Notes under the pieces: generated by a model
Told to the model about the DNA's origin: nothing
Databases searched by the model: none
What the model saw: the letters and a program-made list of their open reading frames with translations, nothing else
Translations under genes and position numbers: made by a program
Part shown: positions 1-55,292 of the stretch, piece after piece
How the letters are laid out: each line of letters starts with the position of its first letter
How positions within the stretch are numbered: position 1 is the first letter of the stretch
Source of the DNA: Girardia tigrina
Lineage: Eukaryota
DNA length: 60,866 bases
Direction: 5' to 3'
Assembly (NCBI GenBank): GCA_001938485.1
Contig: MQRK01223612.1
Coordinates: forward strand, 1-60,866

Positions 1-154
1 CATCGAAAATTGTCTTCAAAATCTTTTTGCGGGCCACATCTACTTAGGTTTATTAAAAATTCAAATTTTGAGTGTTAATTGAATATAAATTTACCATAAA
101 GAAAACAAAAAATTTTTTAATAGAAACATATTTATTAATAAAAAAGAATATGAT

Positions 155-3100
155 TTATTTTTTGCTGGATATAATGCGCCGCTTCTCATTTTTCAAATCA
201 TCAAAATTTGATATAAAATTTTGGCTTGATGTAATTTTTAAAATTGATGCTAAATGTTCTTCAGTCAATCTAGTTCGCTGTGTAGTTTTATTCATCTTCA
301 TTTGTGAAAAAAGCTGTTCACAAATATATGTGCTACCAAACATGGATAATATGCGAATAACAAAATGTCGAATTCTTGGAAAACGATCTGCGGGTAAGTA
401 TCCGTAAAATTCTGGAATACCAATTTCCTTATATTTTTGGTTCAATAAAGTGTCGCATCGTAGTTCTATAAATTCCATTTGCAAATTTTCATCAATATTT
501 TCAATGTCAACAGATATCGAATAGCAAAAAAAATTTAAATGAGACTCGCTACTTTGAAAATTCGAAAACCTCTTTTCAAAATCTTCTTCCAACATCTTTA
601 ATTGTTTCTCAAATTTGTCAAATTTTAATTCTGGATGTTCAAGCAAGAGTCTTACAACTTGAAAAATTAGATAAATTTTCTTTTTTTATTTGTATTTGCC
701 ACAGGGATATCTTTTGCTTGAATGTATTTATTTGGTTATACAATGAAGTTATGAGCAAGTTTCTACCCTGAAGATTAATATTGAGTTGACTGAGATGCCC
801 AGTAATGTCAACTGAGAAAGCCAAATCCTGTATCCAATTAACATCTTTCAGTTCAGAGCAGTCATAACCTTTAATTTCTAAAAAAAAGCACGATTTCGTA
901 CAACAGTTGTAAAAATCTTCTTAAAACTTTATGACTTGAAAGCCAACGAACTTCAGTATAATATGACAAATCTTCCTATTCAGATTCCACGTCATTCAGC
1001 AATGACATAAATTCCCAATGGTTTAATCTGCGTGCTCGAATAAAATTAACAACTTTAGCAATTGTTTTAAATACATTATCAATTTTAATTACTTTTTAGC
1101 ATAAGACTTGCTGATGGAAGTGTTGAACAGATTTATTATAATGGGTTTTGTAGAAATAAATACTCAAATTAGATAAACCAAATGTCAACAAGGGAGTATT
1201 TATTTCTACTTACAGAAAAGAAAATAGTTATTATAAAACGTATAACTATAGATAACACAATATAAGAATAAAATAAAAATAAAAATAACCGTGAGTCTTT
1301 AAAATTTTATTCATAGTCATCAAAAACATGAATCGGACATCAACGATAAATTCACAAACAAATATGCGGTAATTAATTGTAATGTTATTTTGAATTTCCA
1401 ATCAATTTCTTTATTGATTTTTATTTTAGTTTTTATAATCATTATTCTGTCCAACAAATCTGGTGGAATGTCATGAGAAGATATCAATTCTTCCGCACCT
1501 CTGAACGATTTACATAAATCTACTCTCATATAACATGACAATTATGTCAACTTTCAACAGAAATATTTTATTTCTCCAATTTTTTGGCTGCTTTATAGTG
1601 TTATTATGTCAGATAAAACTTGATTACATGATATTTGATTATAAACCTCTGATTAAAGATTTAATTTTTGTAATTGAAAAATAAAAAAAACAGTTAATAG
1701 AACAACTAAATCCCATAATATTAATGACATTTATTGAATAAATAACTGAAGCGACATAGTTCAATCTAGAAACCTTCTAGTTCTTTTGTAATATANNNNN
1801 NNNNNNNNNNNNNNNNNNNNNNNNNNNNNNNNNNNNNNNNNNNNNNNNNNNNNNNNNNNNNNNNNNNNNNNNNNNNNNNNNNNNNNNNNNNNNNCCGCAA
1901 TTCACATTTAAATCAGTTAGATAGCTTTTTCAGTTTTTCTTCGATATCTTCCAACGATAAAATATTCCAAACATAACAACAAGCGAGCACAAACACACAC
2001 ACTTGACCAAATAAAAATGGTATCAAAAATATACAGAACAAGTACAGACAATTCAGGAAGGAAACTGGTGAGAGAAATTCACACTACGGGTTTTAACATA
2101 AGCTTTTAGTCTACCAACGACACCACGTGTAACTCCAGTCATATAAGGGGCCCCATCAGTTGCCAAAGATACTAAGCTATTCATTGGAAGATTATATTTT
2201 TTAATAGTAATCATAAGTGCATCGAAAATATCATCTCCAGTTGTTGTACCATGCATTGGAATTACTTCTAATAGCTCTTCAGTTATTGTCATATTCCGAT
2301 CACATCCTCGAATAAAAACGGCTAAATGTGCTATATCTGTTAAATCAGTACTCTCATCGATTGCAATTGAAAACACTTCAAAATTTACCAACTGAGCGAA
2401 GTTGGTCTCTTAAATTTGAAGCAATGTCAGTGATTCTATTCGCAACTGTATTTCGGGATAAAGTAATGCTTTTAAATTTATTTATCATATGGGGGCATAA
2501 CTCTTCAGCTGCTATTATTAAACATTCACTGATGAAATCGCCTTCCATAAATGATTTTGATTTTTTTGCAATTGCATGCCATAACCGATAACTAGCTGTT
2601 ACGGCGGCCACATTTTCTGCAACTGGTTTAGTGAAAATGCTTTGTTGTTTACGAAGAACTGCATTTAATTCGATCAACTTTTCCTCACGCATTTTTCCAA
2701 CGAAATTTTTATATTCTTCATTATGGAAGGTATTGTGATGCCTTTGGATATTATATTCCTTGCACACTAAAATAGTTTGTTAACATATCAAGCAGAAAAT
2801 TTTACCTTTTTCTTGAATGAAAAAATATTTAATTTCCCATTTTTCTTGAAAGCAACGATGTTCACTTTCAATCGATCGTTTTTTACTCGTACTTGGCTTC
2901 ANNNNNNNNNNNNNNNNNNNNNNNNNNNNNNNNNNNNNNNNNNNNNNNNNNCCGATAACTAGCTGTTACGGCGGCCACATTTTCTGCAACTGGTTTAGTG
3001 AAAATGCTTTGTTGTTTACGAAGAACTGCTTTTAATTCGATCAACTTTTCCTCACGCATTTTTCCAACGAAATTTTTATATTCTTCATTATGGAAGGTAT

Positions 3101-3269
3101 TGTAATGCCTTTGGATATTATATTTCTTGCACACCAAAATAGTTTGTTGACATATCAAGCAGAAAATTTTACCTTTTTCTTGAATGAAAAAATATTTAAT
3201 TTTCCATTTTTCTTGAAAGCAACGATGTTCACTTTCAATCGATCGTTTTTTACTCGTACTTGGCTTCAT
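155..3269 (-). pseudogene. hAT transposase, frameshifted and interrupted
   Basis: ORF pieces include an N-terminal Zn finger (CLICQQ..NIQRHY..H), FSIAIDESTD, LATDGAP, HQQVLC, and the C-terminal dimerisation motif SMFGSTYICEQLFS. Confidence 0.92.
1121..2055. mobile_element. TG..CA insertion (solo-LTR-like) in the hAT transposase
   Basis: It starts TGTTGAAC and ends ACAATTCA, with GGAAG on both sides (1116-1120, 2056-2060). Transposase homology stops and resumes near these points. It contains an N gap. Confidence 0.6.
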
Positions 3270-5643
3270 CTACAAATTGAAGGGCTTTAATATTGTAATA
3301 TTAAAGAAAATTGCATGTTCTGTCTTAAGAAAGAAAATACTAATAAAACTTACCGCATTAAAATTTATATTTATGAAAAAAAGCTGNTNAAATTAGACNT
3401 AATAAAATTCGAAAAAATAAAAAAAACAATAATATTTAAACAAATTTCCTAACTATTTAAATTTAATAATTGTTGATCTGAAAAATAAATAGAAATGCAC
3501 TCGTATAAATTTTCACGAAGATTTGTTTTTATTTTTTCAATAAATTTGATTTTTATAATAGATTTTTTTTTAGAAAATTTTAAAAATTTGTTAAAATTTT
3601 AAAACCATTGCGGGCCGCAAAAAAGTAAGCAGCGGGCCGTGAGTTTGACATGCCTGTTGTAAATAATACACTAAATTAGTAATGGACATTTATTTAAAAT
3701 TAAAGTATTTGTAAATAAAAGAAACTAATAAATGAAGTTTTAAACAAATAGACCCAAAGTCATCATAATTTGACTTCATAATAAAATTAATAAATCAAAC
3801 CAGAGACTTTATTAATAGTCAATAACGGTTACCCCACCCATGGTGAACAAAAATAAGACAGTAAAATAAAATAAAATATTATAATTGTTACGTTCCATAT
3901 TTTGCACCTCAAACCCAGAACCCTTTCACACATTACATTACCCTGCGCGCACGAAAGTTTGTCAGAGTTGTGGGGATAGTCAAACTCGACTATCCCCGGT
4001 AGTTTTAAATGATTCCATGCACGCCGGACGCAGAATAGGGTGAGGGATCCTTGGTAAGGAATGCTTTCACCCGGGAGTCCCTTGCGATCCTTGAGAAACC
4101 TTGAGCAACCTTCTAAAACAAAATAGAAAATTAATTAGCTTAATTAGACTAATTAAAAACTTTACCTAAGATAATCCAAGCCAATTCACCCAACGAACGG
4201 AGAATTGTTTATCAGATAGATGGAGANCGGATACCGAAGATAAACAGTTCGAGGACCACATCCTGTAAGTTCGCGGCAAACAGGCCGGATGACCGCGAGC
4301 GCAAAACCCCGACAGGCGAGCTACAAGAAACAATGATAAACAAACTATTACCAGATTACCCTGACGCAGGATATCGCGAATCGGACGAATAAACAAATCA
4401 TTCCTAGCTCTCTGCCGCGCACGCAAGATGCCGAAATCTCAGACGATTTTTGTGTCTGACGAGGTATAAGTAACCGAACTGGTTTGCACATTGAGCAGAT
4501 AGCAATTTTTAATTTATTTTTCGTACAGCATTTTTAAAGAATTTGTATCAACCCACGATTAAAGCGAATTATTCTTGTTTAACTCAATTGACATCCTTTT
4601 GATCACAAACATTTATTTTTACGAAAATTTATTGTTAATTGTACGAAGAATTATTTGAGCCAATTTATCTCAAGAAAGCTTATTTGAACCAATCTCATGA
4701 AAGTTATTATACGAATTATACGAAGAATTATTTGGCAAAAATTTATGCGAATTTATATTTACGGAGCCGACGAAATTTAAGAATTCCTTATATATTATAC
4801 AATGTTATATTACATTATATTATATTATATTATATATTCCCCTGAACTTATCTAGATCGTTCCTGAGGTTTTCCGAGATCCCTGGCTCCGTCTGAGAACT
4901 CCTTGTAATCCTTCGAAATTCCTTTGAGGCTTCCTAAAATAAAACAAAAAGTTAGCAATTTTAATTAGTCTAAGTGACATTACCTCGATAATTTATAAAG
5001 TCCATCCACGCGAGAACTTCATAAATCACCATTGTTTATCGTGCCAAATTGCCGAAACGATAAACATCGTTGGTCCACGCGCCGACATAATCTAAAGTAA
5101 CAATCGGCATTGCCTTCCTCCTGTAAACAGGACGTTGTCCGAATCCAAAAACATAAACAGGACGCTTCGAGTCCCTGTAGGGTATAAATACCCGAAACGA
5201 CAAAAAAACACACAATTAAAATAATTAAAACAATTTATTATTATTGACATTAACAATTCATTGTTCGCACCACATTTTTAACGAAGTTGAAGTTAATTTG
5301 TATCAAGAGAAATATACGAAGAATTATTTGCCAAAAATTTATATTTACGGAGCCGACGAAATTTAAGAATTCTTTAAAGGTATACTCGCTGTTTATTGAA
5401 TAAATTTTTATTTCCTTTAATAAAATTCCCTTTTATATGTTCCTATTTATTATATTGTTTCCATAAATAATTGTTTTCGGTTCATTATTATTTTATTGTT
5501 GTCTCAATTAAATACTCGCTTTCCATGTGTTGTTGTTTTGTTATTGACGTATTTGATTAAAATATCTTATCACGATTGATTTTTCATCTCTACTAATTAC
5601 TGTTTTGCCATTAATATAATTGATTAAAATACCTAACTTCATT

Positions 5644-5793
5644 TGTCACGACCCTTTTGTTCATAACGGTTTTAAGTGCTCAAAGCCCCCAGTGGCTATT
5701 AGGGGTCAGCCACAACTCGATTTCAACTTATACTATTTTACAAACTGTTTTAATACTTATTTAATTACTAAGTTCATTTGTGGGTCGGACGCC
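5644..5793 (+). ncRNA. Family-A structured domain, partial (hairpin and pseudoknot)
   Basis: GTGGCT/AGCCAC is crossed with GGGT/ACTC at 5692-5718. Homology is lost after GGGTCGGACGCC. Confidence 0.6.
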
Positions 5794-8202
5794 TACACGA
5801 CTACACGACAATTAAATTAATAAAATTAGTAAACCAAACAAATAAATTATCTGTCACTAATATAAACTTTCAAATTCATTTCAAAACTTTCAAAAAAAAA
5901 TTTTTTTAAATCCAATTTCAAAATTCGTAACCCTAAATTTATTAAAAATTTCATAATAACATCGTCATTCCGAAGTAGGAATTTTTCAGCAGTATTATGT
6001 AAAAAAATTAATTAAACATCGAAATTTAAATAACGGAATTTGCAATAAATTTTCAAGCGTTCAAATTCTTAACAAAACTTTTGTTTAGTAAATTATAAAC
6101 TTCGCGTGAATAAAATTATCAAAGAATTGTAATTGAAATTATCGAAATCATCATACAATTCGAATTGCTTAATTTAATTTTAAAATTATATAGGCCCTAA
6201 TAATTAATTACGGAAAGGTCAAAACACCCTTAATAATATTCAAATCAGATAAAAATTACTGTTATTATTATTGTCGAAATTAAAGGTGAGAAAGTAAAAA
6301 AAAAATTTCAAAATTTATTTGTTTGAATAATCTCATTTCGACCTTTAATTCGCGGTATGAAATCAAACCTCCTCAAAAGTCATAATTATCAATCGAATTA
6401 TATCGCAATGATCGTCTTTCAAAGTTAACAAGAACGTTCACAGTTCCTAACTAGGGCCGGTAACTCTTACTATTTAATTTTCCTTTCGATAAATCTCGTT
6501 TTTTCATATCTAAGCTTTATATCTCTGTTTTATAAAATCCCATTACTATTTATTCACGAGTATAATAATAGTCCCTGTCTCTTACTATAACAAAACTATT
6601 CACAAAAGATAAACGTCAAAGGCCAATAAAATTAGAAATATAAAAAAATTTATTAAATTATTGATAAATGGTTAATATCTCGCAAACGGGGTAATCGTTA
6701 TTTCGATAATACAGGAATTGCTAGATCGCCCGTTGTGTGTGAATTGGCGGCTCCATTTCGTCGAGGAACGATATAACGCGCTCGCCCCCGATGAACGCCT
6801 CGAGAGAAATCAACACCACGTCGATAATCATTGGGACCAGGAGGCCCCCTTCACACTCTCGCGGCTCCGGCAATTGCAAATCGAGTTGGGGCATTTACGG
6901 CGAGGATTGATGGCGGTGGTGATGGTGCTAATTAATTACTTGTACGAAAAAGGTAATCTATTTCTGTAGTCGTGCGATTAATATTTAAGTAAAAATTCAT
7001 AAAAACACAAATCATAAATAAAATTCATATTAAGTCAGTAAATAGATACATAAATTAAAATTTACAGCTTTAACAAGAATTTCGGGTTTCGGAAACTCGG
7101 ATTCGGAGGAATGTCGTCGGTTTCTCTTCGCGTATCGTCGTGTAGAGGGAGTTCTCTTGACGCTTGGTTAAGTCGGAATCGGATGATCGTCCTGGCGCCG
7201 GAAGCTATCAGATTCTCGTCTCTTCGTCAAATGGGTCGTTCGTCGGTTATCTGTCGTCGCTCTGCGTCGGGTTCTGATATTCGTTTGGTTTTGGAATGAA
7301 TAACGCTCAGTAATAAGTTGTGCAAAATATTTTTGAAAAATGTGCCATTTGCGGCAGTATGGCTGTTGGATTTATAACAGTCATCATCTCACCTATCGGG
7401 GTGTGCTTTGTCGTGGCATCTTCTGATTCGCTCTTGTTAATAATTTCGGGCTCTCATTTGTCAGGACTGTCGTACCATACAGTGACTGCTTGTCACGCGG
7501 TTCTTTGTCACCGATGACTATTCATCGCGTGATGTTGTTTTTTCTTTGTGGGCCTGACTCATGGTAAGTTTTGTTTATTGTTCTTTGTCTTTCTTAATTG
7601 GCCTTTGTCCTTTTTCAATTAATTTATATATCTTTACAGGGGTATAACTTTTCAGGGGAATATCTCACAGCTTTGCCGATTTCGTTCAGGACCTTGTCAT
7701 TTTCGGGGCTACAAGTGGAGGGTCCGTTAACCTCGTAGTGTTAACGGATTGCCTTGGAAGTAACTTTATTAATTCTTGACCTCTTTTTAATTAATTAATT
7801 TTCTTTTTAAAGCTCTTAGTGCTTTTCTCAATCTTCCGGAGCACGACCATTTATTCTCAGGGATGTGTCTCACTCCACTCTACTTGGAGTGAACCATTTG
7901 TTCGTTTTCTCTTATCAGGTATGTTTTTAACCCGTTTATTTACTTTCTTGACTGATTGTTTTTAGTCCTATCTCGGCGTACAACATTCCTCTGGGCGATC
8001 GGGAGTATCTCAAACTTAATTTGTAATATTATGGTTTCTAAATATATGTATTATTCTTGTGATTTTCGCTTTTTCTCTCTTTGTTAATTGTTTTATAGTT
8101 GATAGTTGATATTGGACCGTAGTGTTATAATTAAATAGTGTTCTTTCTTTTATTTTCTCTTCTTATTTTTATAATTCTAATTTCAATTTCTAGACCGCAA
8201 CA
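5644..8202 (+). mobile_element. Family-A element (TGTCACG..GACCGCAACA), nested
   Basis: TSD CATT (5640-5643, 8203-8206). Both ends and the spliced 3' part are homologous to 20056-22875. Confidence 0.85.
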
Positions 8203-9669
8203 CATTATTGTTATCTCAATTCAAATATTCCGATAATATGATGAAGCATGTAGAGTGGGAAGGTCTTCTCGAGATAACGACCGGAGAGTGCGGGGACCGG
8301 GATTGAGAGTACAGTTCACCTCTTATCCAAGGGATCGAGCGAGAGGGTCCTTGGATTCGGACGTGTAAGCGAGTCGTGAAACCGTTGTAAATAATTGTAA
8401 ATAACTTTAAAACGATGACTACGATTAATTTAATTATTTTTTTTTATTTTCATTTATTTTTATTTTTCCTTTTGTTGATATTTTGGTATTTCCTTTAAAA
8501 GTTGAAAAAAATTCCAAATTAATTATTCTAACGCCGTTTATAACTATTGTTATACTTTCTGTTTTACATTTGAATTTCTTCTAATAATTTGGGCTATTTT
8601 AACAAATTTTTTTCGGAACATTCTCTAACCAATTGTTATCTTTCGCCAATTTGGTTGGGAGCACCTGGTACATTTGCATCTTGACTTATTTTTTATTTTA
8701 CTAATTTTATTAGCCGTATCGTTTCGTAATTAATGTGATTTATTTGTTAGTTAACTGTCGTAAATGTCTAACCTTTCTTTGCTTTAAAAATTGTTCTGAG
8801 TAGATTTCCATCTGATAAATTTTAGTAATAAATTTTGTAAGGTTTGTAATAATTTTTGTAAGATGCTGTAAGATAAAGGCTTACGAAATTGCAAGTAATC
8901 GTAGTGAAGTGATGTGAATCATGATGCGTTACCTTCGAAGTGTTATACAGATCAGTTTGATTTCTTTGTTTCGTGATTAATATTGAGCAGTTAGAGTTAA
9001 AAAATTAAAATTGTAAAGTGAGATCTCGATTGAAACCATAGAGTCCAGAGCACGTTTACAAACTCAAAGTTTAAGCAGTGAAGTCGAATAAATGGCCAAA
9101 TGTTAATGTCAGCGAAATATGGAAATCAGACGAATATAAACTATTAGAAGTTCTTCGAGTTATCAATCAAGTCCCAGTCTACAATCAATTAAATCTTTAA
9201 TTAAAATCTTGAATCGAATAAAGTCGAAAATCGAAAAATGGTGTAAGAGTAAATTCGAGTAATTTGTGAATGTGAGAGGTTAATGATCAAGAGGACGAAT
9301 AAATTAGATAACAGATAGAATACCGAAAGTGAGGAAATGTTATCAGTGTAAACTCATGGTCCGAATTCAACGTGTTACGACTGTCAGCTCGGGTTTAGGA
9401 GAGTATTGTAAAGTGAGACCTGAGCTAAATAATGCGAGTGATTACGTATCGACAGATGAAAACATGTTACATCCTATTTCGATATGGAGGATAAACCAGT
9501 TTCGATTTCTTTGAGTTGAAGCAGGAATTGATATCTTGGTTTAAAATTCTACAGCTCGAAATGAAAAGAAAAGAGAAAAATATTTATTAACGATCGATCG
9601 ATGTTATGCAAATTAAGGTTCTATTCTTAAAAAAAATTAAACCAAAAATTTAACACATAATATATACGA

Positions 9670-10050
9670 TGTCGTGTTCCCCTTCAAAACAACATTATTG
9701 ATGACTCTGAGCCCCCATCCGTTTTCCATTAGAGTTCAACGGCAACTCTATCAAACTAAGCTAATTACATCTCAACGGGAACAGACACGACTCCTTTGCC
9801 TACATCAACGAATTGTGCAGACATTAGAGCGCCTTCGGGTCCTTAACCAGTAACGAGGATGGCCCGACTGGTGACTGAGCTTCTAGAGGGGATGATAATA
9901 ATTCTATACTACGACTATAACCATACCAACGCACTAATACTCGAAACTACAGGAAACGAAGAGAGCCTCAAGAAAGAAAATGACGATCGGTCCGCGTGTC
10001 CCTTGCATGCTGCAGCCGGTCGGCATCACCCTCCCAGGTTCTTCGCCCCA
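9670..10050 (+). ncRNA. Family-A structured domain, full
   Basis: Pseudoknot CCGTT/AACGG plus AGAGTT/AACTCT (9719-9749), GCC-TTCG-GGT (9831-9840), stem ACCAGT/ACTGGT, GGGGATGAT, and a long stem at 9985-10021. Confidence 0.7.
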
Positions 10051-10841
10051 TAAAAGAATTTAAATAAATTCAAATTCATCATAGGTTGTTTATTAGATTA
10101 GTTATTCAATATTGATGTCTCACAGAAAATAAATAGTGGAGTTACGTTAATTTCGGATTGTCAAGGCAAATTAATTTTAACGAGTATTAAAAAAAGTTAC
10201 TTAACACTTCTTATTGATTTTAAATAGATTCATTTGTCACTTTCATGTTACTTAAGATGAATACAAAGTTTAATGAAGTAGCGATAGAAGCCTTGAGATT
10301 CAATATAACACATAAATTTGATAATGAGCAAAATGAAAAGGATCACAAGTCACTTTTAATATTAAATTAAGAGTTTTGATTCACTTGAGTCTTGATTCAC
10401 TTTTCGATACTTTTACATAGGGTTCTCCACTTCTTATAGTTGTGACATGCAAGTTTAGCCATCCTTTCTTATACAATGTAAAATAATTCGGTTCGAAAGT
10501 TTATTATGTCAAAATAATTAAGATGTATAACAACTTTTGTTATTAATTTTCTTTGCAAATTCTTTTTTATATTATTTCAGTGATACGGAAATTTGTTTCA
10601 GTCGTTGAAATATTTTAAGTACACAGAACATAATCAGGAATGAAAATGTGTACACCTCTTCCAAGGCTCCCCAAGCTCACACTCTAATGACTACGATCAC
10701 CAGATTAGGATTGGTGATACTATTGATTTGTTATCGTAGTTCGTTGATCTGTTTATATTTAAATAACAGACTTCCTAAACATCAAACTGGTCACTTATCA
10801 TTCAATAAACAAAAACGGAATATCCGCACTTGACAATGTTG

Positions 10842-11336
10842 TCAATTCATATTTTCATAGCAAGTTGATGGCAACGAATTCGATTCGGGAACAAAATGAA
10901 CGTCTAATTCACTATTACTTAAATATGTTATTGGGTTTGTGTTTTGTGGATTGATTAAAGGTGTTTGTTCAGTGTTGTTAGTCTGTGAAACTGGAGAAAT
11001 ACTATCAACACTGTCTGAGTCATCATCACGACCGGGAATTTTAATTTTATTCTTACAAATCGGACAATTTCGTTTTTGTTTCAGCAACCAAGGATCGGTA
11101 CAAGAAGAATGGTACGCGTGGTTGCAGGGCAATATCCTTAATTTATCTCCCTCTTTAAAGTCATCAAGACAAATCGTACAAGTTTCAAAAGGGTCTTGGC
11201 CTTTTACAAATTTTTTTTTCATATTAAAGAATTTATTTAGATGATCGAAATATAACATAAAGTCCATTATAATATATCGGCATTGAGCAGTAATAATAAG
11301 ACAAAAACACAAAAAAAGAATAAAACTCAGTATCAA
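10842..11336 (-). CDS. TM plus RING-H2 E3 ligase, RNF13/RNF167 (Godzilla)-like, intronless, no PA domain; start codon uncertain, possibly a pseudogene
   Basis: CTICLDDFKEGDKLRILPCNHAYHSSCTDPWLLKQKRNCPICK has all eight ligands and follows a hydrophobic helix. An acidic/Ser-rich tail contains TEQTPLI. Confidence 0.85.
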   Translation of the reverse strand: MILSFILFLCFCLIITAQCRYIIMDFMLYFDHLNKFFNMKKKFVKGQDPFETCTICLDDFKEGDKLRILPCNHAYHSSCTDPWLLKQKRNCPICKNKIKIPGRDDDSDSVDSISPVSQTNNTEQTPLINPQNTNPITYLSNSELDVHFVPESNSLPSTCYENMN

Positions 11337-12029
11337 AGCACAAGCAAATAACCGAATAAAAAAATAAAAATTAATTAAAACATGAATACATACTTCATAA
11401 CAATAGATTTTCTCTGACTCAGCTAATAGGTTTTCTTTGACTCGGCTCTTCCTAACAATAGATTCTCTCTGTATCGGTTTTGTTCAATTAATAACCAAGA
11501 TTTGAGGAATAATGAAAATTCAACAAATTTTCTCTCTAACAAAAAAAAAATTGCGTGCGGCCTTATATACTTCCATCCGAATCGTTCAAATGTTCACGCA
11601 GGATGTGCGTGATCAACAGGATCATGAGGTAATTTTTTTGTTTTGTCATTCACATATTTATTAAATTCACGCAAGATATTCGTGAATAAACCATCTGGAA
11701 TGTCGACTAGAATTCCAAATGTCAGATGTAAGTACATATTAATTAATTCATATTTTTAATTATCTTTAATTTTCTAGCTTGGCCCCAAGCAGCGAATTGG
11801 AATCCCGACCCGATTCGACGCCCCGACAAGCTGAGAGTCATTTAACACTACATGAGGATAGTCTAGTTTGACTATCCTCAAACACTCTGAACACGGGCTC
11901 TCATGCGTAAGGGGTGTCGGGTTTGGGACAGGGTTTATATGCAGCTACCTCAGGAAAATGAAAGGGTTTGTGTAATTATATCTCTGTCGTAACAACGAGT
12001 TAAACCTAATTACAAGCAATAATCGAGTA

Positions 12030-12420
12030 TCCGGACGAAGGGTTTTGAGAAGCGGTGCGGCAGCCCATAGCATGCACAGAGGCACGTGGGCTGACCATCA
12101 CTTGTTTCTTCGAAGTGTCCTCGCCAGATATAAATAAATAAAATCGACCTTGACGAAATCGAAGAAAATAAAATCAAAAATCATCCCCTCCAGAAACTGA
12201 GTTACCAGTCGGGTCATCCTCGTTACTGGTCAAGAACCCAAAGGTGCTCTAATGTTTACACAACTTGTTGATGTAAGCAAAGGAGGCGCGTCTGCTCCCC
12301 AAGTGTAGTGAGTATCTATGTAGAGAAATAGTGATTGTTAGAATGATTGCCGTTGAACTCTAAGAAAACGAATGGTGGCTCAGAGCCATCATTAATGTTG
12401 TTTTGAAGGGGAGCACGACA
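12030..12420 (-). ncRNA. Family-A structured domain, full
   Basis: Reverse-complement homolog of 9670-10050 with all blocks in the same order. Confidence 0.7.
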
Positions 12421-20055: not shown

Positions 20056-20310
20056 TGTCACGACTCTCTTGAGTTAGAACATTTTTAAAAGCTCTTGAGC
20101 CCCCAGTGGTTATAAAGGGTCAACCACAACCCAATGTCGCTTTATGAGTTCATTTATTTATTCCCTTGAATGTGTTTGCACCTAAATGGGTCGGATGCCT
20201 CTTCTCACCTGACATCTGACTAGTAGTGCCAAGCTCGAAGGGCCTGCGGGTTCAGTTTAAAGATAGGACGGGCTGTGGGCCCCTCTGTCTCGTGTTGCTC
20301 GGGGATGATT
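20056..20310 (+). ncRNA. Family-A structured domain
   Basis: GTGGTT/AACCAC plus GGGT/ACCC (20106-20132), GCC-TGCG-GGT (20242-20251), AGATAG/CTGTCT enclosing GGGC/GCCC, and GGGGATGAT. Confidence 0.7.
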
Positions 20311-21664
20311 TCGTGCTAGGTAACATTTATATTCTTAGTGAATGCGTCTCATGCTGGTTATAACTACTGTGTTGTATGTGCCATCTGTAACATTTACTGT
20401 GGGTGCCGCTCATGCCACGTTTGTCGGTGTGTCTAAAACTATGGAGATATCGTCATTAATATTATTAATATTATTATCATTGTATACATAACAGTCTGCG
20501 CATCAACAACTAGTATCAACGACGGGTTTACGGTATTCACTTTACACCTCATTTACTAATTATTATAATATCATTATTGTATGTTGCTATGTAACCGCAT
20601 ATTGTCATTTTATTCTTATTAATTCTAAGAGTAATCATTTGTACACTTTCTATCGACAACAAATAACGCGTTTATATTTACGAAAAGACTTTTTGCTTTA
20701 TTTATATATTATTTATATATACATAAAATCACTCCTCTAATCACAATATTCAGTGTTCGATGTTGTGCGGATTTATTTACTCAGAACGGATTTTCATATT
20801 TCAGTTTGTTTAATACCAGGTAGAATCATACCAATATAATAATTCATCATACTATTAACCTATCTAATATTCAAATACGAGCTCGCTAGGCTTAATTTCT
20901 AAAACTCAGTCATTTAATATTAGTAATTCTTCGTCTCAAATATCTACAACGATTCATTTATGACTGGGCTCGTTTTATTGATTGATTACTTACAACATAC
21001 AGACATATCTCGATTTCAGGTCCCTGCGGACCGATGTATCATTACCATCAGAACGAAACCATTCTCTCTCTGTAAGACTTCACTGCCACTGGAGTTACTA
21101 ATTTGAGCAACAAGTTTGTAGCGTGCTACATTTGACGATCGGATTTCTTATCTTTCTAATGGATAAACGAGGATAACAACGACGGCTGGAACGAAAATTA
21201 ACTTCCTATTAACTTCCTAAAAGAGAAATTATCACTTAAACACTCGGATTATTTACAAATAGACAATAAAAAAGTTTGTATATATATATATATATATATA
21301 TGTATACAAAAAAAATAAAAAAAATAAAAAAACAATATTTTAAAAAATTTAAATTACAGAAAGATTTTTTAATACAAAGATATTTATAAGATATATATAT
21401 TTTTTTGCGATATTTTTCGCAATTGATAAGAAAAGGAAAAATTCTATTAAATCCGAACCGGTCACAAAGAAACTGAAACTTGCCAATGAAAAAATCGATA
21501 TATATATATATTATATATATAATATATATATACCAATGTTCTCGTTGGTATTGATTCGAAAGGATTGTGTCTCAATATGGGATTATATATATAATTATAT
21601 ATATATATATATATNNNNNNNNNNNNNNNNNNNNNNNNNNNNNNNNNNNNNNNNNNNNNNNNNN

Positions 21665-21704
<40 letters not shown>

Positions 21705-22875
21705 CAGGTTAATAATTCAACATTGTTACATAAAGATAATAATTACAAGAACGATATCGATACGGCCCGGAGGATAGTTCTGTGCCAATCAGTTCCCTAC
21801 GGTTGTATATTTCACCTGTCGACATGTCAGTAAACGGAAGTGCCTATCTCGGGAATTAGGATTGCGCCCTCTTGATTAGCTCGTTGCTCGCTGCGCTCGT
21901 CTTTCGTCTCGTTGTCAGATGCTGCTAACAACTTGTCTATTTGGTTCTGTCGAATATTTCGCTCTGTCAAAATTTTGCTGATTGGCGTTCTTTTATCTGT
22001 CAGTTGTCTAGAATTTTCGAAATGATTTTTGATTGTCGTCTCTAGTCTACAAATTACCGTCATATTTATAACAACATTTCTTGTATATTGTTGTGTCTTT
22101 TCGTCGTGGAACTATTTCATTGGCGCAAATTGTTGTTTCTGGAATTTCATTTGTCGGGGTCTATACAACATGCCGATTTCTGATAGTGGTTCTGTCATTC
22201 TCAGAACACATGATCGGTATTATTCATTGATAAATCGTGCTGATTAATCGCATGATGGTTATTTTTGGATTTACGGTTGACTCACGGTAATTCTTAATTA
22301 TTTTTTCTATTTTAATTGGTTTTTCTTTATATTTCAGGGTCTTATACCTCTGCTCAGGAAGATACCAGTGTCTCGCGGGCTTCATTTAGGGACTCGGCTT
22401 GCGAAGATATTTCAGGAGAGGGTCGGATGACCTTCCATCTTTACTGTGAAGTTCGGTAAGGAATTTTATTATTTTTTGGTTTCGTTTTAATTAACTTTTT
22501 CTTTCTTAAGGCTTACAACTTTTCTCGGGGATATGTGATCTTCAGAGGTGTTATCTCTATGAACTCATCTAACGATATTCTATCTAGGGGAAAATATTCG
22601 TTCGATTTCTTTTATCAGGTGGGTTTCTATTCATCGTTTTCTATTTTCTTTATGTCGTGTTTTAGCCTTTATGATATTCTCACTGCTCGATCGGACTGCG
22701 AGGGGATCAATAACAATTCCGGACAACTTCGTTAACCTCTGCATGTAATGTGATACGGCGGTTAAATATATGTATTAAAGTAATGTCTTACTTTCTTGTC
22801 CTTCTTTGTGCTTGCTGAATGTTATGTTTGGTAACCTGCATATGTGTGTACTAAAATAGTTTTTTGACCGCAACA
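20056..22875 (+). mobile_element. Family-A element (TGTCACG..GACCGCAACA)
   Basis: TSD ATCA (20052-20055, 22876-22879). Same termini and intron positions as 5644-8202. Contains an N gap. Confidence 0.85.
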
Positions 22876-24021
22876 ATCACTAGAAATTTCTGATTGATTC
22901 AAATTTGCTTTTTGTTATTAGATTTTTTTGATTTTTTTCGACAAAAAGCAAAATGAAATAATTTATTGAATTAGAATTAGAAAGATGTTTTGTCGTCATC
23001 TTTATCGAAATTATATACGACACTACGGAAATCTTTTAGAGTTATTAACTCGAGTTTATTGACTAGTCATCAATACTCGGCGTAGATAATCGTAGCTGTT
23101 TGTTGTCACTCTGGATCGTTTCAGATTATCCTCGTCTGGTTGGTCCGATATTCCACTTGGAAACCGCCTAGATTCCTTGTCGTCGTGTGGATTATCGTTC
23201 ATCCTTATTGTTGTGCATCTCACTTTGAATTTTTAACTTCTACATAACTATATATATTATTACTTTATTTATATTATATATTTATATTATGTATTATTAT
23301 ATTGTTATATTATGTATTTATATTATCTATTTATTTTTATGAATTTATTTTATGTATTATTATGTATGTAATTATTATTATTATTATTATTATATACATA
23401 ACTACCATACGTAGTTATGTAGAAATTAAAAAATTAAATTTTGAATTTAAAATTGGTGATCAATAAAATGATCATTGATTTTAATCAGAAATTATATTAC
23501 TTACCTCAAATTAAATTTTTAATTGCCGTAAAAAAAATCAATATTTTTATTAATTAATTATTACGGCTAGAATTATATACAAATTGCCACTGACAACTTA
23601 TGTATTGAGATTTCCTGTTTTTTACGAATTCGTTTCAGTATCTCAACTTTAAAAAGACACAAAAGAAAAGGTCCCGAAACTATTTATTCAATATTTTAAT
23701 TCAAAGTATCAAAAAACACTGCTCAAATTATATTTACGGATATTCCGAGTATTCGAAAGAATAATTGAAGAGAAAATTATCCTGACAATTTGTAGTCAAT
23801 TTCTGGTTGTAACGAACAATTCTGACAGTTTGCAGTCAACTTTATTTTTTTATTGTGATGAACGATTTACAACCCCTACAGTTTGAGTATTTTAGTAGGG
23901 GTTTTTTTGGTTGTGAGTCATACCCAGTTGATTGTTAATCAAGGTGTTACAAATAAATTCTATTGATCCCCTCTCTTAATATTATATAATTATAGTGGTA
24001 ATATAACCCAACTATAATAAC

Positions 24022-25400
24022 TGGTGTCAGAAGTTGGATATTGCATTCTAATAGCTCCCAATTAAAACCCTTATTTAATTATTTCTTTTTATTCACGTTG
24101 TTTGCCATTATGACTACTAAGGTGAAACTGAAAAATAAACAGGCTGATTTTATAGAACACCGGTTCAATAATAAGAACAAAATTTATTTTAAAGTCCCAG
24201 ATTTTAAATTAGACTGTAATGGTTCTCCTATACCTTGGTTAGAAACATGTATTAACCTCTTTAATTTTAATGATATTTTCGATAACAATGTTATATTAGT
24301 TCTTATATTATTAATAATCTACCACCGAATATCCTCTTCAAATTTGGAGATCAACTTCAACAATTTTCTAAAGCTACAAATCCTCTCAATAACCTACGCG
24401 AAATTTTTCAGAATTCTTTTCCATGGGACCAAGATCTGATTTTAAATGAATATTTCCATGATCATATTTTAGGTGATAAGAAACCCTATATTTTTCTCTC
24501 TGAATTAATTGATAAATTAAAAGATGAGCAGGGCCTAGTAAATAACTGCCTGGTAAAATTTTTCTTCTACAGACCACTACCCTGTAATATCAAACACTTA
24601 GCCAGAAACTAGTAAATTGGCTGACCAATTATATCAAAGTAATTCCTATAATGTCAACGCCATTCATAAACTTAAAATAAACGAAGAAAATGAAAGTGTG
24701 ACAATCAAGACCCTTTTAAATAAAATCGAATCTTTAAATGAGGAACTCTGTTCCCTAAAAGGAATCATAAAAGACCAGGAAATCTTCATAAAAAACTTAA
24801 AAAACAACCAACAGCAAAGGATTACAAAAATATCAACAACTTTCAATACAACAGAAATATATATTTTAATTCTTTTGACAGAAATTATTCTGACAGTTCA
24901 AAGAATTATAATGTGAATTTATGTTTCTACCATAATGAGTACGGAAATTCAACTTTTCGTTGTATCAAACCATGCAATTTTAATAATAATAGTTTAAACC
25001 CAGGGAGTCACTTGGATTAACACCCTTTCCGAGTGACGTTAATAATATTTAGAGTATCTGTAAATAATTTACCTCATTCATTTTTATTTGACTCCGGTTC
25101 AGTCGATTCTGTTTTACCTCGTTCGTTCGATGTTCAGCGTTCACACAATAATTCTAGTCTATATGCAGCAAACGGTTCTTCTATTGAAACTTTCGGCATG
25201 CGTAAATTAAAGATAGTTCTGGGAAAGGATATTTTCTGGTGGAATTTTATAGTTCCTAATGTACGACAGCCGATTTTCTTAGTAATTTTGGACTTCTAGT
25301 AGATTGTAAAAATCATTCTCTAATTTTTAAAGATAAAATATATTACGGTATCGGAGAGCCTAATGTTTGTTCTATTAAAAAAACTTTTGTTCAATACATT
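24022..25400 (+). pseudogene. Ty3/Gypsy gag-protease remnant with tRNA-Leu-type PBS
   Basis: PBS TGGTGTCAGAAGTTGGAT at 24022-24039, gag motif LCFYHNEYG..CIKPCNF, and aspartic protease FLFDSGSVDSVLP..LYAANGSSIETFG. Confidence 0.88.
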
Positions 25401-25640
25401 TTAACTGAAATTCCTAAAACAAAGGTGACTACTTTTTACAATTCTATTTTCTTTAAAAAAAATTCTAAAAATAAATCAATTACTAAAACATCAATCAACA
25501 AAAAACATTTTTGTACGTGAGATTATTCCGGTTAATAGTTTAACAAATACATTTTTTTTCACAGAAGGTAGATTTGTCTGTCCAAACCGATATTCATAAT
25601 ATATCATATATTTATGAATATTTATAAATTAATTTAATAA

Positions 25641-25849: not shown

Positions 25850-26304
25850 AATGCCAAAACATCGGTGATTTGACCTTCGTTACATCTAAGAACAGATATT
25901 TTAATTCTTTTGAAATTAAGCCTTCAATTTGAACACTAATATTTTCTTTAGTAATAAATGAGTTTCATTTTATTTCTAGATACAATTTTAATGTCAGTTT
26001 TTGAATTGTAGAATATGTTTTTATTTTTGAAATTTTCAAAGATGTTTGCAAAACTCTAATTTATAACATTTTCCTAGTCCTAGGGTACTCTTGTAAAGAT
26101 TGATTTTAAATGAGAGTCAAAACGTTTTACTTGAACTCATTGAGATACAAATCTTCTAATGACTCAATATAAATACGGAAGAGATCAATGAGATAAAAGC
26201 GTAAACAGAGTCTCTCAGAATCACCAACCAGAACATGGTACGACTTGTTATTGATTTTGATTGATCATATATTTATGAATATTTATAAATTAATTTATTA
26301 ATAC

Positions 26305-27235
26305 TTGGACGGGATTCCGTGTCTCCACGTTGTTATTTTTTTAATCAATAGTTTCGCTTGAATTTTATAATTATTTAAACTCGTAACGATCTTTTTATCG
26401 TTTATTTTGGAATTTGTCAGCAATATCATCATTATATTCAGCGCATCCAGCGCGTCTCCTTCAATATATTCGGCTTGCAACAACGCGATATAATTTTCCC
26501 ATTTATTACCAATTACTTTTCCGCAAGTGAAAAATCGTATCGGAATAATCATTCTTTTGTTGTCAATCACAAATGAAATTTATAAAATTGCCAAAATCAA
26601 CAAAAAGACAAATTTTTCCCCTTTTATTTTTAATTGAAACAGTTTTTAATAATTGATCACACTTCGCTTGAAATTGGAAACCTTTTTTTCAAATTAGAAT
26701 TGTTATTGAAAAACTTTTATTTTTTAGAGACAAAGACTTGATTCAAAAAATTGACAAACTTTTTTTTAAATTGTGAAAACAATTCACACAAAAAAACAAA
26801 GCTCCTCACACACACACTCACAAACAGACATTCACCAATCATTATTTACATATCAAACATACATACACTCTGCATTCATACATTTCATTCAATCAAAACT
26901 ACCTTACATAATTACTTACCTCAATCAATTACATAATTACATTTGAGGCTCACCATTAATTAATTCGTATAAAGAATCGTTTATACCGGTTTCGTTTATG
27001 AATTTATAAATCAATGATTTACATAGATGTCTGTTATTTAAAATAGTACTGATACAGATTATTTAAATTAATTATTATTATTTTTTTTATTTTAATTATT
27101 AATTTGTTAATTTTAATTAATTTATTTAATTATTTTTAATTTATTAATTTAATTGTTTAATTATATATGTTTTATTTATAAATTTCTGAAACTGACAAAA
27201 ATGTTCGGTTAAATCAGCAATTCTCCGCTCCAATA
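26305..27235 (-). mobile_element. Family-B element carrying an RPB10 fragment
   Basis: Terminus T(A)TTGGAGCGGAGAATTG, TGGTGAGCCTCA at 26944-26955, a CA-rich leader, and a 24-mer at 26305-26328, all shared with 55326-56524. Confidence 0.7.
26433..26552 (-). pseudogene. POLR2L: RNA polymerase subunit RPB10 N-terminal 40 aa, fused in frame to unrelated sequence
   Basis: MIIPIRFFTCGKVIGNKWENYIALLQAEYIEGDALDAL. The first Cys is replaced by Phe and the RYCCRRM half is missing. Confidence 0.92.
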
Positions 27236-28260
27236 CTGTTAATTTTAAAAATAACGGCAAATGTTTTTTTTGAAAATTAGAAGACATTTTAAAATATATT
27301 GAGTACCGGAAAGGATCAGCACATTCGAACGTAGATATCCTCTCTGAACGAGTGTAAAACATGTGTAAAATGCTAAATGCAACACAAGTATTCAAAAACA
27401 GGGAATGTAAGGACCAGAAAATTTAATTCTATCGCATCAGAAAAAGTTTCAGTCACCTCAAAAAAGTTTAGTTGTCCGACGAGGAAATTAAAAGAAATGT
27501 TCATGAGATACATCAGTTGTTGACTCACACAGGAGCAAAGAATATAGAAAATCTACGGAGCAAAGAATATTCAAAGAAAATCCAACAAGTCATTCAGAGA
27601 TGTGTAGCGTGTCAAAAAGTTAAAGTATAACGAAATAAAAAAAAAGATGTGAAATTACAAGTAACTGATATTTTCAAAAGTAATTTTTATAGACATGTTG
27701 GCCGTTGACACAGAGAGTTGGAAATAAGATATATATATATATATATATACTAAATGTATAAAAACATTTCAAATACAATCCAGAATCGTGCATATTGATA
27801 AATTGTTGTCTGTTGATTAAAACTCTTCTTTAAAATCAGAAGTTTTAAATACATATCATTTACTGCTATATCGAAACATAACGAAGCAACTGTTCAGAAA
27901 ACTATTCTCAATAACTGGATTCTACGTTTTGGATTTTCAAGAATTCATGTTGATTGTTGGAAGGTGTTCGATTTAAAAACATTGAAGTAGATTGCTACAA
28001 GCTTATATGCAATGTTATGCTAAGTCCGTGCCATCAAAATTATAATGGAAAGATAGAACGACAATTCCAGACTATGATTGTCATGATGAGTACAACGTTT
28101 TACGATAGAAGAAAAACAGATTGGGTAGAAATTCTGCCGAAAATTGAGTAAAATTTGAATTTAACTACATAAAAATTAATTGAAGAGTCTAGCTGAAGTT
28201 TTCTTTAGTAAAAAGATCTGCAGGGAAAAATGGTACCCTTCAGGATATACAAACAGCATA
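27236..28260 (+). pseudogene. Ty3/Gypsy pol remnant (RNase H end, integrase)
   Basis: HQLLTHTG..CVACQKVK zinc finger, NWILRFG, HQNYNGKIERQFQT and DWVEILPKIE, with many stops. Confidence 0.85.
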
Positions 28261-28749
28261 TTCAAGAACGATGATACGGTTACAACAGATAGGAAGTTTT
28301 AAAAGAAGATAATGTATGATGATGACTTAAAATTACCAAATCATTTGCTTCATTATTTTTTAACGTTTCTGAGTTTTGCATTTCAGCCGAAATTATAAAA
28401 ATATCCCAACAATAAAGAATAGTCAACTCTTTAGTAGATGTAGTATCAGACTGAGTAATATTTTGTTTTTCTAATGAATCGCAGATGCAGCGAAAATTTA
28501 TTGATGCGAAAAAATATTGATATTTATCTTAGTTAAAATAATTATTTCAGAGTATTAGTAGGATATTATAATATAACTATATAGATGATTGATATAGAAT
28601 TACGACAGAATCGTATCACAGTCGCCTCGTGTAAATAAGTTTTTCCTGTGTAAATAAGTTTGAGTCTACAGTTTAGTTCCTGAACAGAGAGCCAATGCGT
28701 TCAGAAGTTTTGAGTAAATCAATTTGAGAACTGGAATTAACCTAATTAC

Positions 28750-28990
28750 ATCATCCCCGAACGATATTGAGCCGGCTGGGCGGCACATAGCCCGTCCTGG
28801 ATTAATTGAACCTGAAGGCGAACCAAACTCTTCACTATTTATAGATGAGGAGCGAGGGAAACGTGTCCGCCCACCAAATTTGTAAAACGGACTTACACAG
28901 AGATGTCATATACTGGGTACAGGTTAAACCCTTAAAAACCTCTGGGACTCAGAGTCGACAATAATGTCAACACCTGAGGTGGCCGTGACA
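28750..28990 (-). ncRNA. Family-A structured domain; far end of the element not found
   Basis: TGTCACG terminus at 28990, GACTC-T-GAGTC, AGGTT/AACCT plus GGGT/ACCC, GCC-TTCA-GGT, and GGGGATGAT. Confidence 0.7.
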
Positions 28991-32744: not shown

Positions 32745-32957
32745 TTATCGGCTTGCGGCGTTCTTAGCCAACTCTCCAGGCAGCAGCAGTTTCACTCCCG
32801 TCTGGATCTCTGTGCTCGTGATCGTCGACTTCTTGTTGTAATGCGCCAATCGACTGGCCTTCCTTGCAATCCGCTCAAACACGTCGTTCACGAAACTGTT
32901 TATGATCGACATGGCTTTGCCAGAGATGCCAGTGTTTGGGTGCACCTGCAGCAGCAA
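32745..32957 (-). pseudogene. H2B: Histone H2B fragment
   Basis: [50 protein letters not shown]. The N-terminus is absent and the C-terminal helix is internally deleted. Confidence 0.95.
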
Positions 32958-33431
32958 GAATTCTATTATTTGTCTATTCAGAAATTCGTTTTTAATCTTT
33001 TCATGATAAATGTTTTTCTAGAATAATCCCGTGCAAAGCAATAATGATTTTTTTTAATTGTCAGTGATGGAATACGAAATATAGATGGTTATTGGTATAA
33101 TTTCTAATTCAATTCACAAAAGAAAAGTACAGAATAGATGTGAGATATATAAGTGTACATAATAATAATCATGAATTTTAATAATTACTTTTATATCATA
33201 TAAGATTATTATCAGAGAAAATATATATTTTTGTTCTACCTGGAAGAAATAAACGTTTTATGAAATTTAGGATGGGGATCATTTTGCTTATCAAAAGTAA
33301 AATTGATGCAATTATAGATTTACAATCACTATTGAACCTTAACGAAGTAAAATGAATGTATAATTAAATTTTATGACCAATGTTGAGTCTAACTTTTAGG
33401 AGATGCGTAAATAAAATAATCTATTCAACCC

Positions 33432-37177: not shown

Positions 37178-38990
37178 GGGAACGTTCGCTTATTACGTAA
37201 CACTTTAGGGGGAGGGGGTCAATGATTTTGTTACGGTTTGTTACGAGGAAGGAGGGAGGTTCGAAAGGTTGTTACATAAGAAAAAAATATTTTGCATTAT
37301 TGCTCTACATTTCATTCCGTCTTTAAAAAAGAATATCTTTCAATAAAATGCATTTTTTCAGAATATGTTAAGTTAAAACTACATCAGGATATTTAGTAGT
37401 AAAGTAGAATGTTTTTACAAATAAAAAAAATTGAGAAGTGACTGATATCAACTTTAGTGAACTAAAAATGCAAAACAATCATCTTCAGCCAAGAAACTCT
37501 TGTTCTATTGATGGTAAAAAACATGTTAAAATAGTTCCAGTTCCCTTAATCAAGGCCTTGTGAGATAATCATAAAAGACACCCGGATTCTGTTTTTTGCA
37601 CAGCTACTTACAATAACCTCTGTGAGCCTGCATTATTTTTAGGTCCTGAGGAAGTAGTAATCATTAGTCAAGACGATAAGGCAAAAGTACCGATTGGTTT
37701 ACCTGCAGCTGATTGTCAAGCGCCGTTGTTGATGAACATGGAATATCGAGTCACACTTCCTGATCATGATTGGTTTATTGCTCAACAACACAAGTTGATA
37801 CCTTCAGTTTATGCTGAATTAACGATTGATAACAACGGTTTTGGTGATCCAAATGCAGTTCAATATTCTGTTCCTACATACATGGCTGTAAGATCAGGAA
37901 AGCATTCTCATTCGACCGCATATTCGCATGCTAAAGATTTTGAACGTTTATATGACATTGATCAGTTCAAACGATTTCTTTTCGGTGAAAATAATTTACC
38001 AAAACCTGTAATGATAATTTTAGTTGATGGTGGTCCAGATGAAAATCCGCGTTATCAAAAAGTAATTGAAACAGCTATACATCATTTCATCAAACGTAGT
38101 CTTGATGCGATCTTCATACTAATGCTCCCCAATCGCAGTACATTCAATCCAGTAGAATGTCGAATGGCTCCTCTTTCAAAACAACTGTCAGGACTCATTC
38201 TTCCACATGATAATTATGGTACCCATCTTGACTCAAATGGAAAAACTATAAATAATTATTTAGAATACAAGAATTTTAAATTTGCTGAAGAAGCATTATG
38301 CGAAGTTTTCTCAAATGTCATCATTGATTCTTTCGAAACCGTTGCTGAATTTATTGATCACGATAGCTCTAAAATGGAATCAACTAATTTAATTCACAAA
38401 TCAGAATCTTGGATTGCCCAACACGTTCGATCAACTCAATACATGATACAAATTGTAAAATGTTTAGACAAGAATTGTTGTGGAACCATTCAAAGTAAAT
38501 TTCATAAAATCATTAAATCAAGATTTTTACCGGCCCCAATTCTTCTACATTATGCTCCAATGATTGAAATGGAATCGATGGATATCAACAAATTGAAATA
38601 TACTTCACTATTTCAAAGCCTTCATCTTGAATCACCAGAATCACCATATGACCAATATTGTCCTAGTGTCAATGACAAAGTTCAATCAAGAACATATAAG
38701 AAGTGCAAAATATATTTTGCATCCCTTACTTTATTAAGCAATCATAAAAAAAATCACTCCCGAGAAGTGATTTCTCCTGCTGCAAAGACTAGGAAAAACG
38801 AGTGCTACGTCAGCGTGAGAGAGAATTTATGGTCATTACGGAAGAATCACCAGGATTGGATACATGCGAATGGGTAGATATGGATGATGTGATAGTAGAT
38901 TCAACAATGAATTTCGATAAATCATCCGAGGATTCCATACCAGTTTTTGACTTAAATTAGCGTTTAAACCCTTGGGTAAATGAATAAATG
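37178..38990 (+). mobile_element. Zator DNA transposon; right TIR not found
   Basis: TTA|GGGAACGTTCGCTTATTACGTAACAC terminus (GG start, TWA target), followed by a G-rich tract and a transposase. Confidence 0.75.
37480..38987 (+). pseudogene. Zator transposase (largest open piece 37726-38877)
   Basis: SQDDKAKVPIG, LPDHDW, HKLIPSVY, VDGGPDENPRY and FNPVE.RMAPLS motifs. There is an upstream stop and a probable 3' frameshift. Confidence 0.8.
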
Positions 38991-40290: not shown

Positions 40291-41043
40291 TTAAATATTT
40301 TGAAAAGTTCCTAGACAGATTTTAAAATTCAAAAGTTTATCATCATTATCAATGACATTGTTTTGAGAGGCCTGCTTAAATAAATCTATATGTAATTGGT
40401 TGGTTTTTTCACGTATTATCAATTCACTAATACTTTCACCAGAAACCTGTTTCTTATTTATCCAAATCAATAATAATTTCTCTACCTCTTCTATTATTTG
40501 CGATCTTTGTTTTGTCAAGACATTCACGCCCTTTGCAACATTGGCTACGTTAATTAAATCCTTGTTTTTTTTAAATTGTTCTAACCGTTGATTTCATTAA
40601 ATTAAAATCTCTTGCAATATTGCTCATCTCATGTTTCTTAACAATTTCTTTCTTTTTTTCAATTGATATTTTGCGGCGTTTTGAATAAAATTTTGATGGT
40701 ACCATGAAGGGATAAGAACTATAAAATAAAACCTCATCACAAATAATATAACAAACCATTAATTAAACTATTAAGATAAACCATGCATTAAATTAATAAG
40801 ATTAACTATTACTTACAATAATTATCATAACCAGTGTTTCTTTCAATTTATATGATGTTTTTAATTAGTTTTCATTAAAATGGTTTATTTAAACACTAAA
40901 AATTTAAAATATCTACGTTTTTGTTAATCTGTATTTTGATGTTCGTAAATCGAAGCATGTTTGTAAACCGAGATAAAATTGACCAAAATTTATCGAAAAT
41001 TTTTTCTCGTAAACCGAGACGTTCGTAAACCGAGGTATCACTG
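40291..41043 (-). mobile_element. Tigger/pogo remnant (CENP-B-type HTH domains)
   Basis: TA|CAGTGATACCTCGGTTTACGAAC TIR, RRKISIEKKKEIVKKHE..KSTVRTI and EEVEKLLLIWINKKQVSGESISE. Confidence 0.9.
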
Positions 41044-52630: not shown

Positions 52631-52639
52631 ATTCCCTGA

Positions 52640-55259: not shown

Positions 55260-55292
<33 letters not shown>

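Follow-up and report, generated by a model that had tools for sequence, protein, structure and literature searches.

Transposable elements carry pieces of host genes, and two described routes come closest to the locus analyzed here. LTR elements capture host sequence by template switching at microsimilarities; the resulting retrocopies hold a partial piece of host mRNA within a retroelement, have no poly(A) or TSD of their own, show short similarity at the fusion, and keep their reading frame while young, with loss-of-function changes coming later (PMC5131818). TIR elements capture fragments by gap filling at microhomologies (PMC8277862), and both single-copy Pack-TIRs (PMC8277862) and gene-carrying GingerRoot elements (PMC6839031) are described as holding a low-copy host fragment mid-element with microhomology at a breakpoint. 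In planarians, the giant Gypsy elements named Burro have taken up ubiquitin- and apoptosis-related domains in an AT-rich host, and their description indicates that fixation of domains of this kind in a retroelement is possible (PMC6431247). Here, we analyzed a 60,866-nt stretch of Girardia tigrina DNA (contig MQRK01223612.1, referred to as the window) in which an element carries part of a host gene for a RING-H2 protein of the RNF13/Godzilla type. We think it probable that a non-autonomous LTR-like element captured this fragment, and that the capture is young, low in copy number, and now drifting. A decaying host RING fragment of this sort would be best filed as ordinary gene-fragment capture, an event of a known kind. 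Literature searches, judged by the titles listed and without most subscription papers or any supplements, found no report of an RNF13 fragment in a transposon.

The locus resembles the LTR-mediated retrocopies in the features listed above for them, with a candidate, imperfect similarity near its 5' fusion point. However, those described in PMC5131818 replace internal ORFs between two LTRs, whereas here the piece lies inside one TG..CA unit of 2.3 kb, for which neither a second LTR nor a PBS or PPT is seen, and intron loss is no more than plausible. Like Pack-TIRs and GingerRoot, the element has a low-copy host fragment in its middle, but the elements in those descriptions have TIRs and a 6-bp TSD, while ours has no TIR and a 4-bp TSD. 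With the PA-TM-RING ligases RNF13, RNF167, and Godzilla, the encoded frame shares the RING-H2 domain, the acidic patch, and the dileucine-type motif, yet it has no signal peptide, PA domain, or family TM and so lacks three of the four features by which that family is defined in PMC8834447. The likeness to Burro is one of description only, and the domains reported there are old and lie in the polyprotein or accessory ORFs (PMC6431247).

The element itself is as the original prediction described it. It starts with TGTCGTG, finishes with CGTAACA, and is flanked on both sides by ACGA. A contig of the DNA run X1 holds the empty site, joining 9665 to 11995 and skipping 2329 nt, which is the element plus one TSD; the joint contains four ambiguous letters. 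This inner element sits in opposite orientation within an older copy of the same family. Within the first 30 kb of the window lie the starts of six TSD-flanked motif pairs, of which three are homologous units of 2.3-2.8 kb (5644-8202, 9670-11994, and 20056-22875), all with 4-bp TSDs. The units at 5644-8202 and 20056-22875 have the ends TGTCACG..CGCAACA and the TSDs CATT and ATCA. All three units show the TGTNR...CA ends (a pattern given in PMC2836005) and the 4-6 bp TSD of Gypsy-type solo LTRs. Terminal inverted repeats are absent from the three, with matches at 4-6 of the first 10 nt (4 of 10 in 9670-11994) and 9-16 of the first 40. Ginger1 and Ginger2 agree with them in the 4-bp length of the TSD, but need TIRs of 40-270 bp, and ACGA, CATT, and ATCA are unlike the CCGG/CCGT specificity of Ginger1 (PMC2836005). 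Without terminal inverted repeats, the units fall outside the definition of Ginger given there and fit a solo-LTR-like type. The coordinates of the features are collected below.

Features of the element, the captured host piece, and their surroundings (strand "." where none is assigned)
Feature	Position	Strand	Basis or remark
Non-autonomous TG..CA element, 2,325 bp	9670..11994	.	ends, TSD, empty site in X1
Left TSD ACGA	9666..9669	+	flank match
Right TSD ACGA	11995..11998	+	flank match
Conserved family end	9670..10060	+	homologous copies at 12420, 17073, ~15100, 28990, 20056, 5644
Structured element end, z=-5.7	11700..11994	+	partly homologous to end at 3886
Outer same-family copy, part 1	11995..12420	-	inner element inserted in opposite orientation
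Outer same-family copy, part 2	9373..9665	-	continuous with part 1 at empty site
TATATAAG, candidate inward-facing element promoter	11562..11569	-	sequence match
23-nt tandem repeat	11402..11447	.	spanning X1 and X7 contigs align with 31 and 37 gap letters
Element-side open stretch in RING frame, with pseudo-TM 11348-11292	11218..11396	-	no ATG before pseudo-TM; stop 11399-11397 in 4/4 runs
First in-frame ATG	11265..11267	-	would yield soluble 141-aa RING protein
Candidate guide for template switch	11229..11244	-	15/17 vs host, by eye; chance 0.4-1.9%
Host-derived RNF13 fragment, ~374 nt, 97% identical to host-type contigs	~10844..11217	-	X3 record 21, X7 record 31
RING-H2 domain	11055..11180	-	8/8 ligands; derived T103, T129
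Dileucine-type sorting motif EQTPLI	10953..10970	-	motif search
Stop codon at 3' junction	10842..10844	-	lacking in 3/3 runs covering site

The predicted structured end is the right one: it folds more stably than all 200 shuffles, whereas the left end (9670-10070) folds no better than its own (z=+0.6, 76 of 100). A hairpin-like motif at 11853-11880 in the structured end recurs in opposite orientation at about 3975-3995. A spliced plus-strand leader was dropped as a candidate, as a short-intron strand test at the element ends was unbiased (2-4 matches per strand), and a sigma-70 promoter scan was set aside as irrelevant to a eukaryote. No Pfam family was found in the ORFs of the sibling units (118 of the 129 listed ORFs scanned), no match to the family-end motif in viral and prokaryote contigs, and no Rfam or tRNA match in the window.

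The window is AT-rich and full of hAT, Tc1, pogo-type, and retroelement debris. Transposase fragments of hAT (dimerisation, Spin-doc finger, DUF4371), pogo, and Tc1 type lie at 72-3269 (minus strand), 40294-40593, and 52282-53862. A separate decayed retroelement at 23946-25517 (plus strand) starts with TGTTACA, has a PBS-like TGGTGTCAGAAG near 24022, and has no Pfam match; by eye, we presume that its frames are gag- and protease-like. At 37564-38874 (plus strand) there is a 437-codon open frame with no Pfam family, which gives us the impression of being transposase-like, and at 43635-46885 a 1.6-kb tandem duplication of 96.6% identity has a 101-aa ORF in each copy. Other stray host fragments seem common in the region. 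They include a decayed RPB10 fragment at 26301-26579 (minus strand; RNA_pol_N, E=1e-13), which may sit in another repeat and whose WRHGIPSK recurs in the ORF 55229-55891; a degenerate histone fragment at 32748-33017 (minus strand; Pfam Histone, E=5e-12), which we take to be H2B; and a weak TIP49 fragment at 1323-1541 (minus strand; E=1.5e-4).

How much of the element comes from the host? We compared the window with contigs of 4 of 24 listed sequencing runs (X1, X3, X7, and X10), none of them recorded as RNA; metagenome rows of small share were left out, also as evidence on habitat. The evidence rests on the part of the output that was listed: 32 pieces (4627 in total), 24 loose ends (648 in total), and 40 variant rows (406 in total). 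Two deep contigs, one of X3 (depth 662) and one of X7 (depth 501), share 97% identity with the window as far as 11217, beyond which 222 nt follow that are unlike it. The 30 of these letters that were listed read, in the RING frame, as the basic LKKIP-type linker found ahead of the RING in the family consensus. We take these contigs to be the host gene; most of the listed pieces of the element interior have a depth of 3-10. The X3 contig also departs from the window at 10844, with 75 loose nt, and the element contig of X1 ends at 10874, still 30 nt within the piece, which is what a k=31 branch at 10844 would produce. Because X3 leaves the window at both 11217 and 10844 and the X1 element contig ends nearby, about 374 nt can be assigned to the host. 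A low-depth contig, X3 record 22, runs along the element between 11416 and 11220, beyond which it has 99 differing letters on the RING side, as would a sibling element without the RING insert. X10 is uninformative, with no cover over 10693-11136. We regard the host origin of the piece and its 5' limit as shown. The piece holds the RING, the acidic patch, and the dileucine motif, with the PA domain, the TM, and most of the juxtamembrane linker left behind. The original prediction had the host RNF13 origin right, but not the loss of the PA domain alone. No PA domain matched Pfam in the window frame, where host-like sequence begins only at 11217.

The frame that reads through the piece has 213 open codons (11483-10845, minus strand, in an ORF scan of the window). 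Its C3H2C3 RING-H2 domain has all eight ligands (C102, C105, C120, H122, H125, C128, C140, and C143), and the host-derived part has neither a frameshift nor an intron. The domain matches zf-RING_2 in Pfam (E=3e-15) and RNF13 as its top PDB hit (E=9e-23); protein searches likewise returned RNF13 first, the top named relatives were animal proteins, and no close relative was found. The motif EQTPLI at residue 172 has the form [DE]xxxL[LI] of the RNF13 branch, which occurs in 139 of 149 relatives. Over the tail, the closest relative is P0005 (92 aa, 53% identity), whose own tail is about 40 aa longer; a search for longer proteins with P0005 found none, and a metagenome search for related loci found seven generic RING loci (33-51% identity). 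Translation from 11267, residue 73, would give at most a soluble protein. Two further in-frame ATGs follow at 11258 and 11222, four out-of-frame ATGs lie upstream of 11267 in the window copy, and no in-frame ATG before residue 73 could supply a signal peptide.

The promoter-like sequence that was predicted about 230 nt upstream exists: TATATAAG lies on the minus strand at 11569, about 220 nt ahead of the hydrophobic stretch, but 302 nt ahead of the first in-frame ATG. Eight-mers of the identical kind occur 10 times in the window on both strands, and looser matches are common (356 of TATAWAWR). Inward-facing TATA-like boxes are found in all three of the other family ends checked, reading from the right-type end.

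Is the captured RING under selection? At six sites, X1 and both host-type contigs carry one and the same letter and the window copy another, which marks six derived substitutions of the window copy; X1 record 5 may be the host gene or an element copy. The six cause four amino-acid changes, and four of the six steps are nonsynonymous (a double-hit codon counting as two steps), close to the 3.9 of 6 (65%) expected of neutral transitions; the pattern has P=0.007 at an omega of 0.1, P=0.13 at 0.3, and P=0.32 at 0.5. T129, an I/V to T change in the CIDPW motif, is found in none of 147 family members; for T103 the count is 1 of 149. The window differs from X1 at 6 of 322 positions in the RING and at 8 of 483 in the non-coding flank (Fisher p=1), and from X3 by 3.0% in the RING and 2.4-3.4% in the flank. 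Because the RING diverges as fast as its flank and its substitutions look neutral, we take the capture to be young, and nothing points to constraint on the RING, within the small numbers of six substitutions. X1 depth over the RING is about 7-8e2 vs up to 5.6e5, summed, at the family ends, roughly 700-fold lower; summed contig depth is not copy number, and several RING-bearing copies are possible, yet the insert is probably low in copy relative to its family. The window copy most likely gathers substitutions at a neutral rate and in a neutral pattern, and as a protein it probably does nothing.

These data bear on the reading of an element-borne effector in soluble form, in which a TATA-driven transcript yields a 126-141 aa RING with a dileucine tail that would bind E2 enzymes or adaptor complexes and act as a free ligase or compete with host RNF13, perhaps functionally in other copies even if the window copy is damaged. 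The ligands and dileucine motif are intact, in-frame ATGs lie downstream of a family-type TATA box, and the sequence across the 3' junction occurs under two organism labels. Moreover, RNF13 is naturally cleaved so that its RING is freed from the membrane (PMC8834447), and the domains of Burro are a precedent among planarian elements (PMC6431247). Against this reading stand the neutral-looking substitutions, including T129, the upstream ATGs, a RING depth of ~7e2 compared with ~5e5 at the family ends, and the lack of a close relative in protein searches. The original prediction named a single copy with neutral dN/dS and no expression as grounds for giving up an effector; the neutral-looking pattern and the low depth go in that direction, while an omega of 0.3-0.5 is compatible with the data. 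We regard this soluble effector as improbable, and an effector role of any kind, over all such readings combined, as unlikely.

The hydrophobic stretch upstream of the RING is what led to the prediction of an intronless RNF13/RNF167-like TM-RING protein. The RING-H2 and the missing intron stand; a translatable TM-RING is not supported, and its TM is not of host origin. The stretch at 11348-11292 precedes the first in-frame ATG, with none upstream of it. Its DNA lies on the element side of the junction and is 64% T, and similar hydrophobicity is found elsewhere in the window (32 segments with KD >=2.5 in six frames). Scored on an HMM of 144 RNF13 TM-plus-linker segments, the upstream 68 aa reach 11.0 bits (the members' mean is 88.7, in-sample). 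Among 500 block shuffles, 124 attain this score, and among 500 full shuffles, 22 do. The upstream 68 aa lack the PF/PL motif present in 130 of the 144 members and have three K+R residues vs a member mean of 9.4. The stretch matches no Pfam family, and an Atlas search displayed a single match at chance level (0.83). The apparent TM is T-rich element DNA.

A second possibility is that the TM-RING is real in origin, with a fresh RING recombined in frame behind a membrane-peptide ORF of the element's own or an old, diverged RNF13 capture. The 60 codons of 11396-11217 are open in the RING frame. Dinucleotide shuffling leaves such a frame open in no more than 33 and 17 cases of 3000, and among 1217 overlapping windows matched in composition it is open in 98 (8%), so that the stretch has more order than pure chance predicts (0.6-8%). 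An element ORF or older capture upstream of the RING keeps some small probability. The spacing from TM to RING is like that of the family, element and host are alike at 15 of 17 positions next to the junction on its upstream side, and X3 record 22 may hold a diverged RING in its 99 unmatched letters. However, the upstream 68 aa give no RNF13 signal or Pfam family, the Atlas match is within chance, no ATG precedes the TM, all four runs have an upstream stop, and X3 record 22 has 10 gap letters across the stretch. We hold this origin to be as improbable as the soluble effector.

What mobilizes the family? About 350 nt away from one of the family ends there is a decayed stretch that resembles an integrase (Integrase_H2C2; its E of 0.003 does not reach the curated cut-off); it has no PDB match, and the family end beside it leaves no room for a full LTR. 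If this stretch belongs to the element, the family sense strand would be the RING strand, which, from one adjacency, is only a lead. Decayed Gypsy-type integrase-like frames at 27450-28300 (plus strand) and 28650-28990 are followed by a reverse-oriented family end, and they may be the relic of an autonomous partner; in that case, the family would consist of integrase elements without TIRs. The window has no paired direct copy of the family sequence around a gag-pol. TGTTACG at 3886 and CACGACA at 12420 have the common flank TAAT, a word common here, and 3886-12420 is possibly one outer element with several nested insertions. A bolder reading makes the family an undescribed, TIR-less TG..CA group mobilized by an integrase, with a slot for promoter plus cargo in which, in one lineage, a host RNF13 RING was recombined in frame behind a membrane peptide encoded by the element and amplified as a new E3-type effector, the window copy being a damaged one; we consider this highly improbable. 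Scarcely credible is an assembly chimera in which a short-read assembler joined a host exon to a repeat by way of A-rich words that both contain. In its favor, the assembly of the window has gaps (298 N), the 5' junction falls in an A-run, and no bridging contig is among the pieces listed for it. Against it, two mis-joins would be needed with both ends tied to one insertion by matching TSDs, derived substitutions peculiar to the window copy have accrued at a flank-like rate, and the 3' junction is also reached in X1 (30 nt) and X3 (16 nt). Among the pieces listed, at least 31 letters bridge the 3' junction only in X7 record 31, a contig that is host-type at its other end and may itself be a graph chimera.

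We therefore return to capture by a non-autonomous LTR-like element. The captor would be a non-autonomous member of a high-copy TG..CA family with 4-bp TSDs, solo-LTR-like and of the Gypsy-integrase type. It would have gained about 374 nt of host RNF13/Godzilla when homology guided a template switch from the element to the host sequence and back again, either in reverse transcription with a co-packaged host mRNA or in DNA gap repair. The captured piece would then lie downstream of the element's own TATA-like box and encode, at most, a soluble RING of 126-141 aa behind four upstream ATGs. By eye, element positions 11244-11229 resemble the host just upstream of the 5' junction. Of 5000 random 30-mers, 96 reach this likeness, as do 14 of 3274 that were matched in composition. 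The piece has no A-run of at least 7 downstream, and its flank repeats are no longer than 4 nt, which argues against a separate LINE-type insertion with its own TSD and poly(A). This absence, together with the 15/17 likeness, suits a homology-guided template switch. The mechanism, the kind of donor, the low copy number, and the lack of function are what we infer, whereas the ends and TSD of the element, the non-host nature of the apparent TM, and the derived substitutions are shown. The start of P0005 and a skip in P0037 fall at apparent exon borders inside the piece and so hint at an RNA donor, but an unbroken X1 DNA contig crosses the same borders and keeps both donors in play; we lean very slightly to RNA, and the label of retrocopy is plausible.

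Why does a probably inert fragment matter? First, it shows that T-rich repeat DNA can mimic a TM helix ahead of a genuine domain. Moreover, dated by its distance of about 3% to the host-type contigs, the locus would offer a snapshot of a route by which giant retroelements, and elements related to them, could gain domains of the ubiquitin system. If amplified and constrained copies existed, they would show a host RING giving rise to an E3 ligase encoded by an element.
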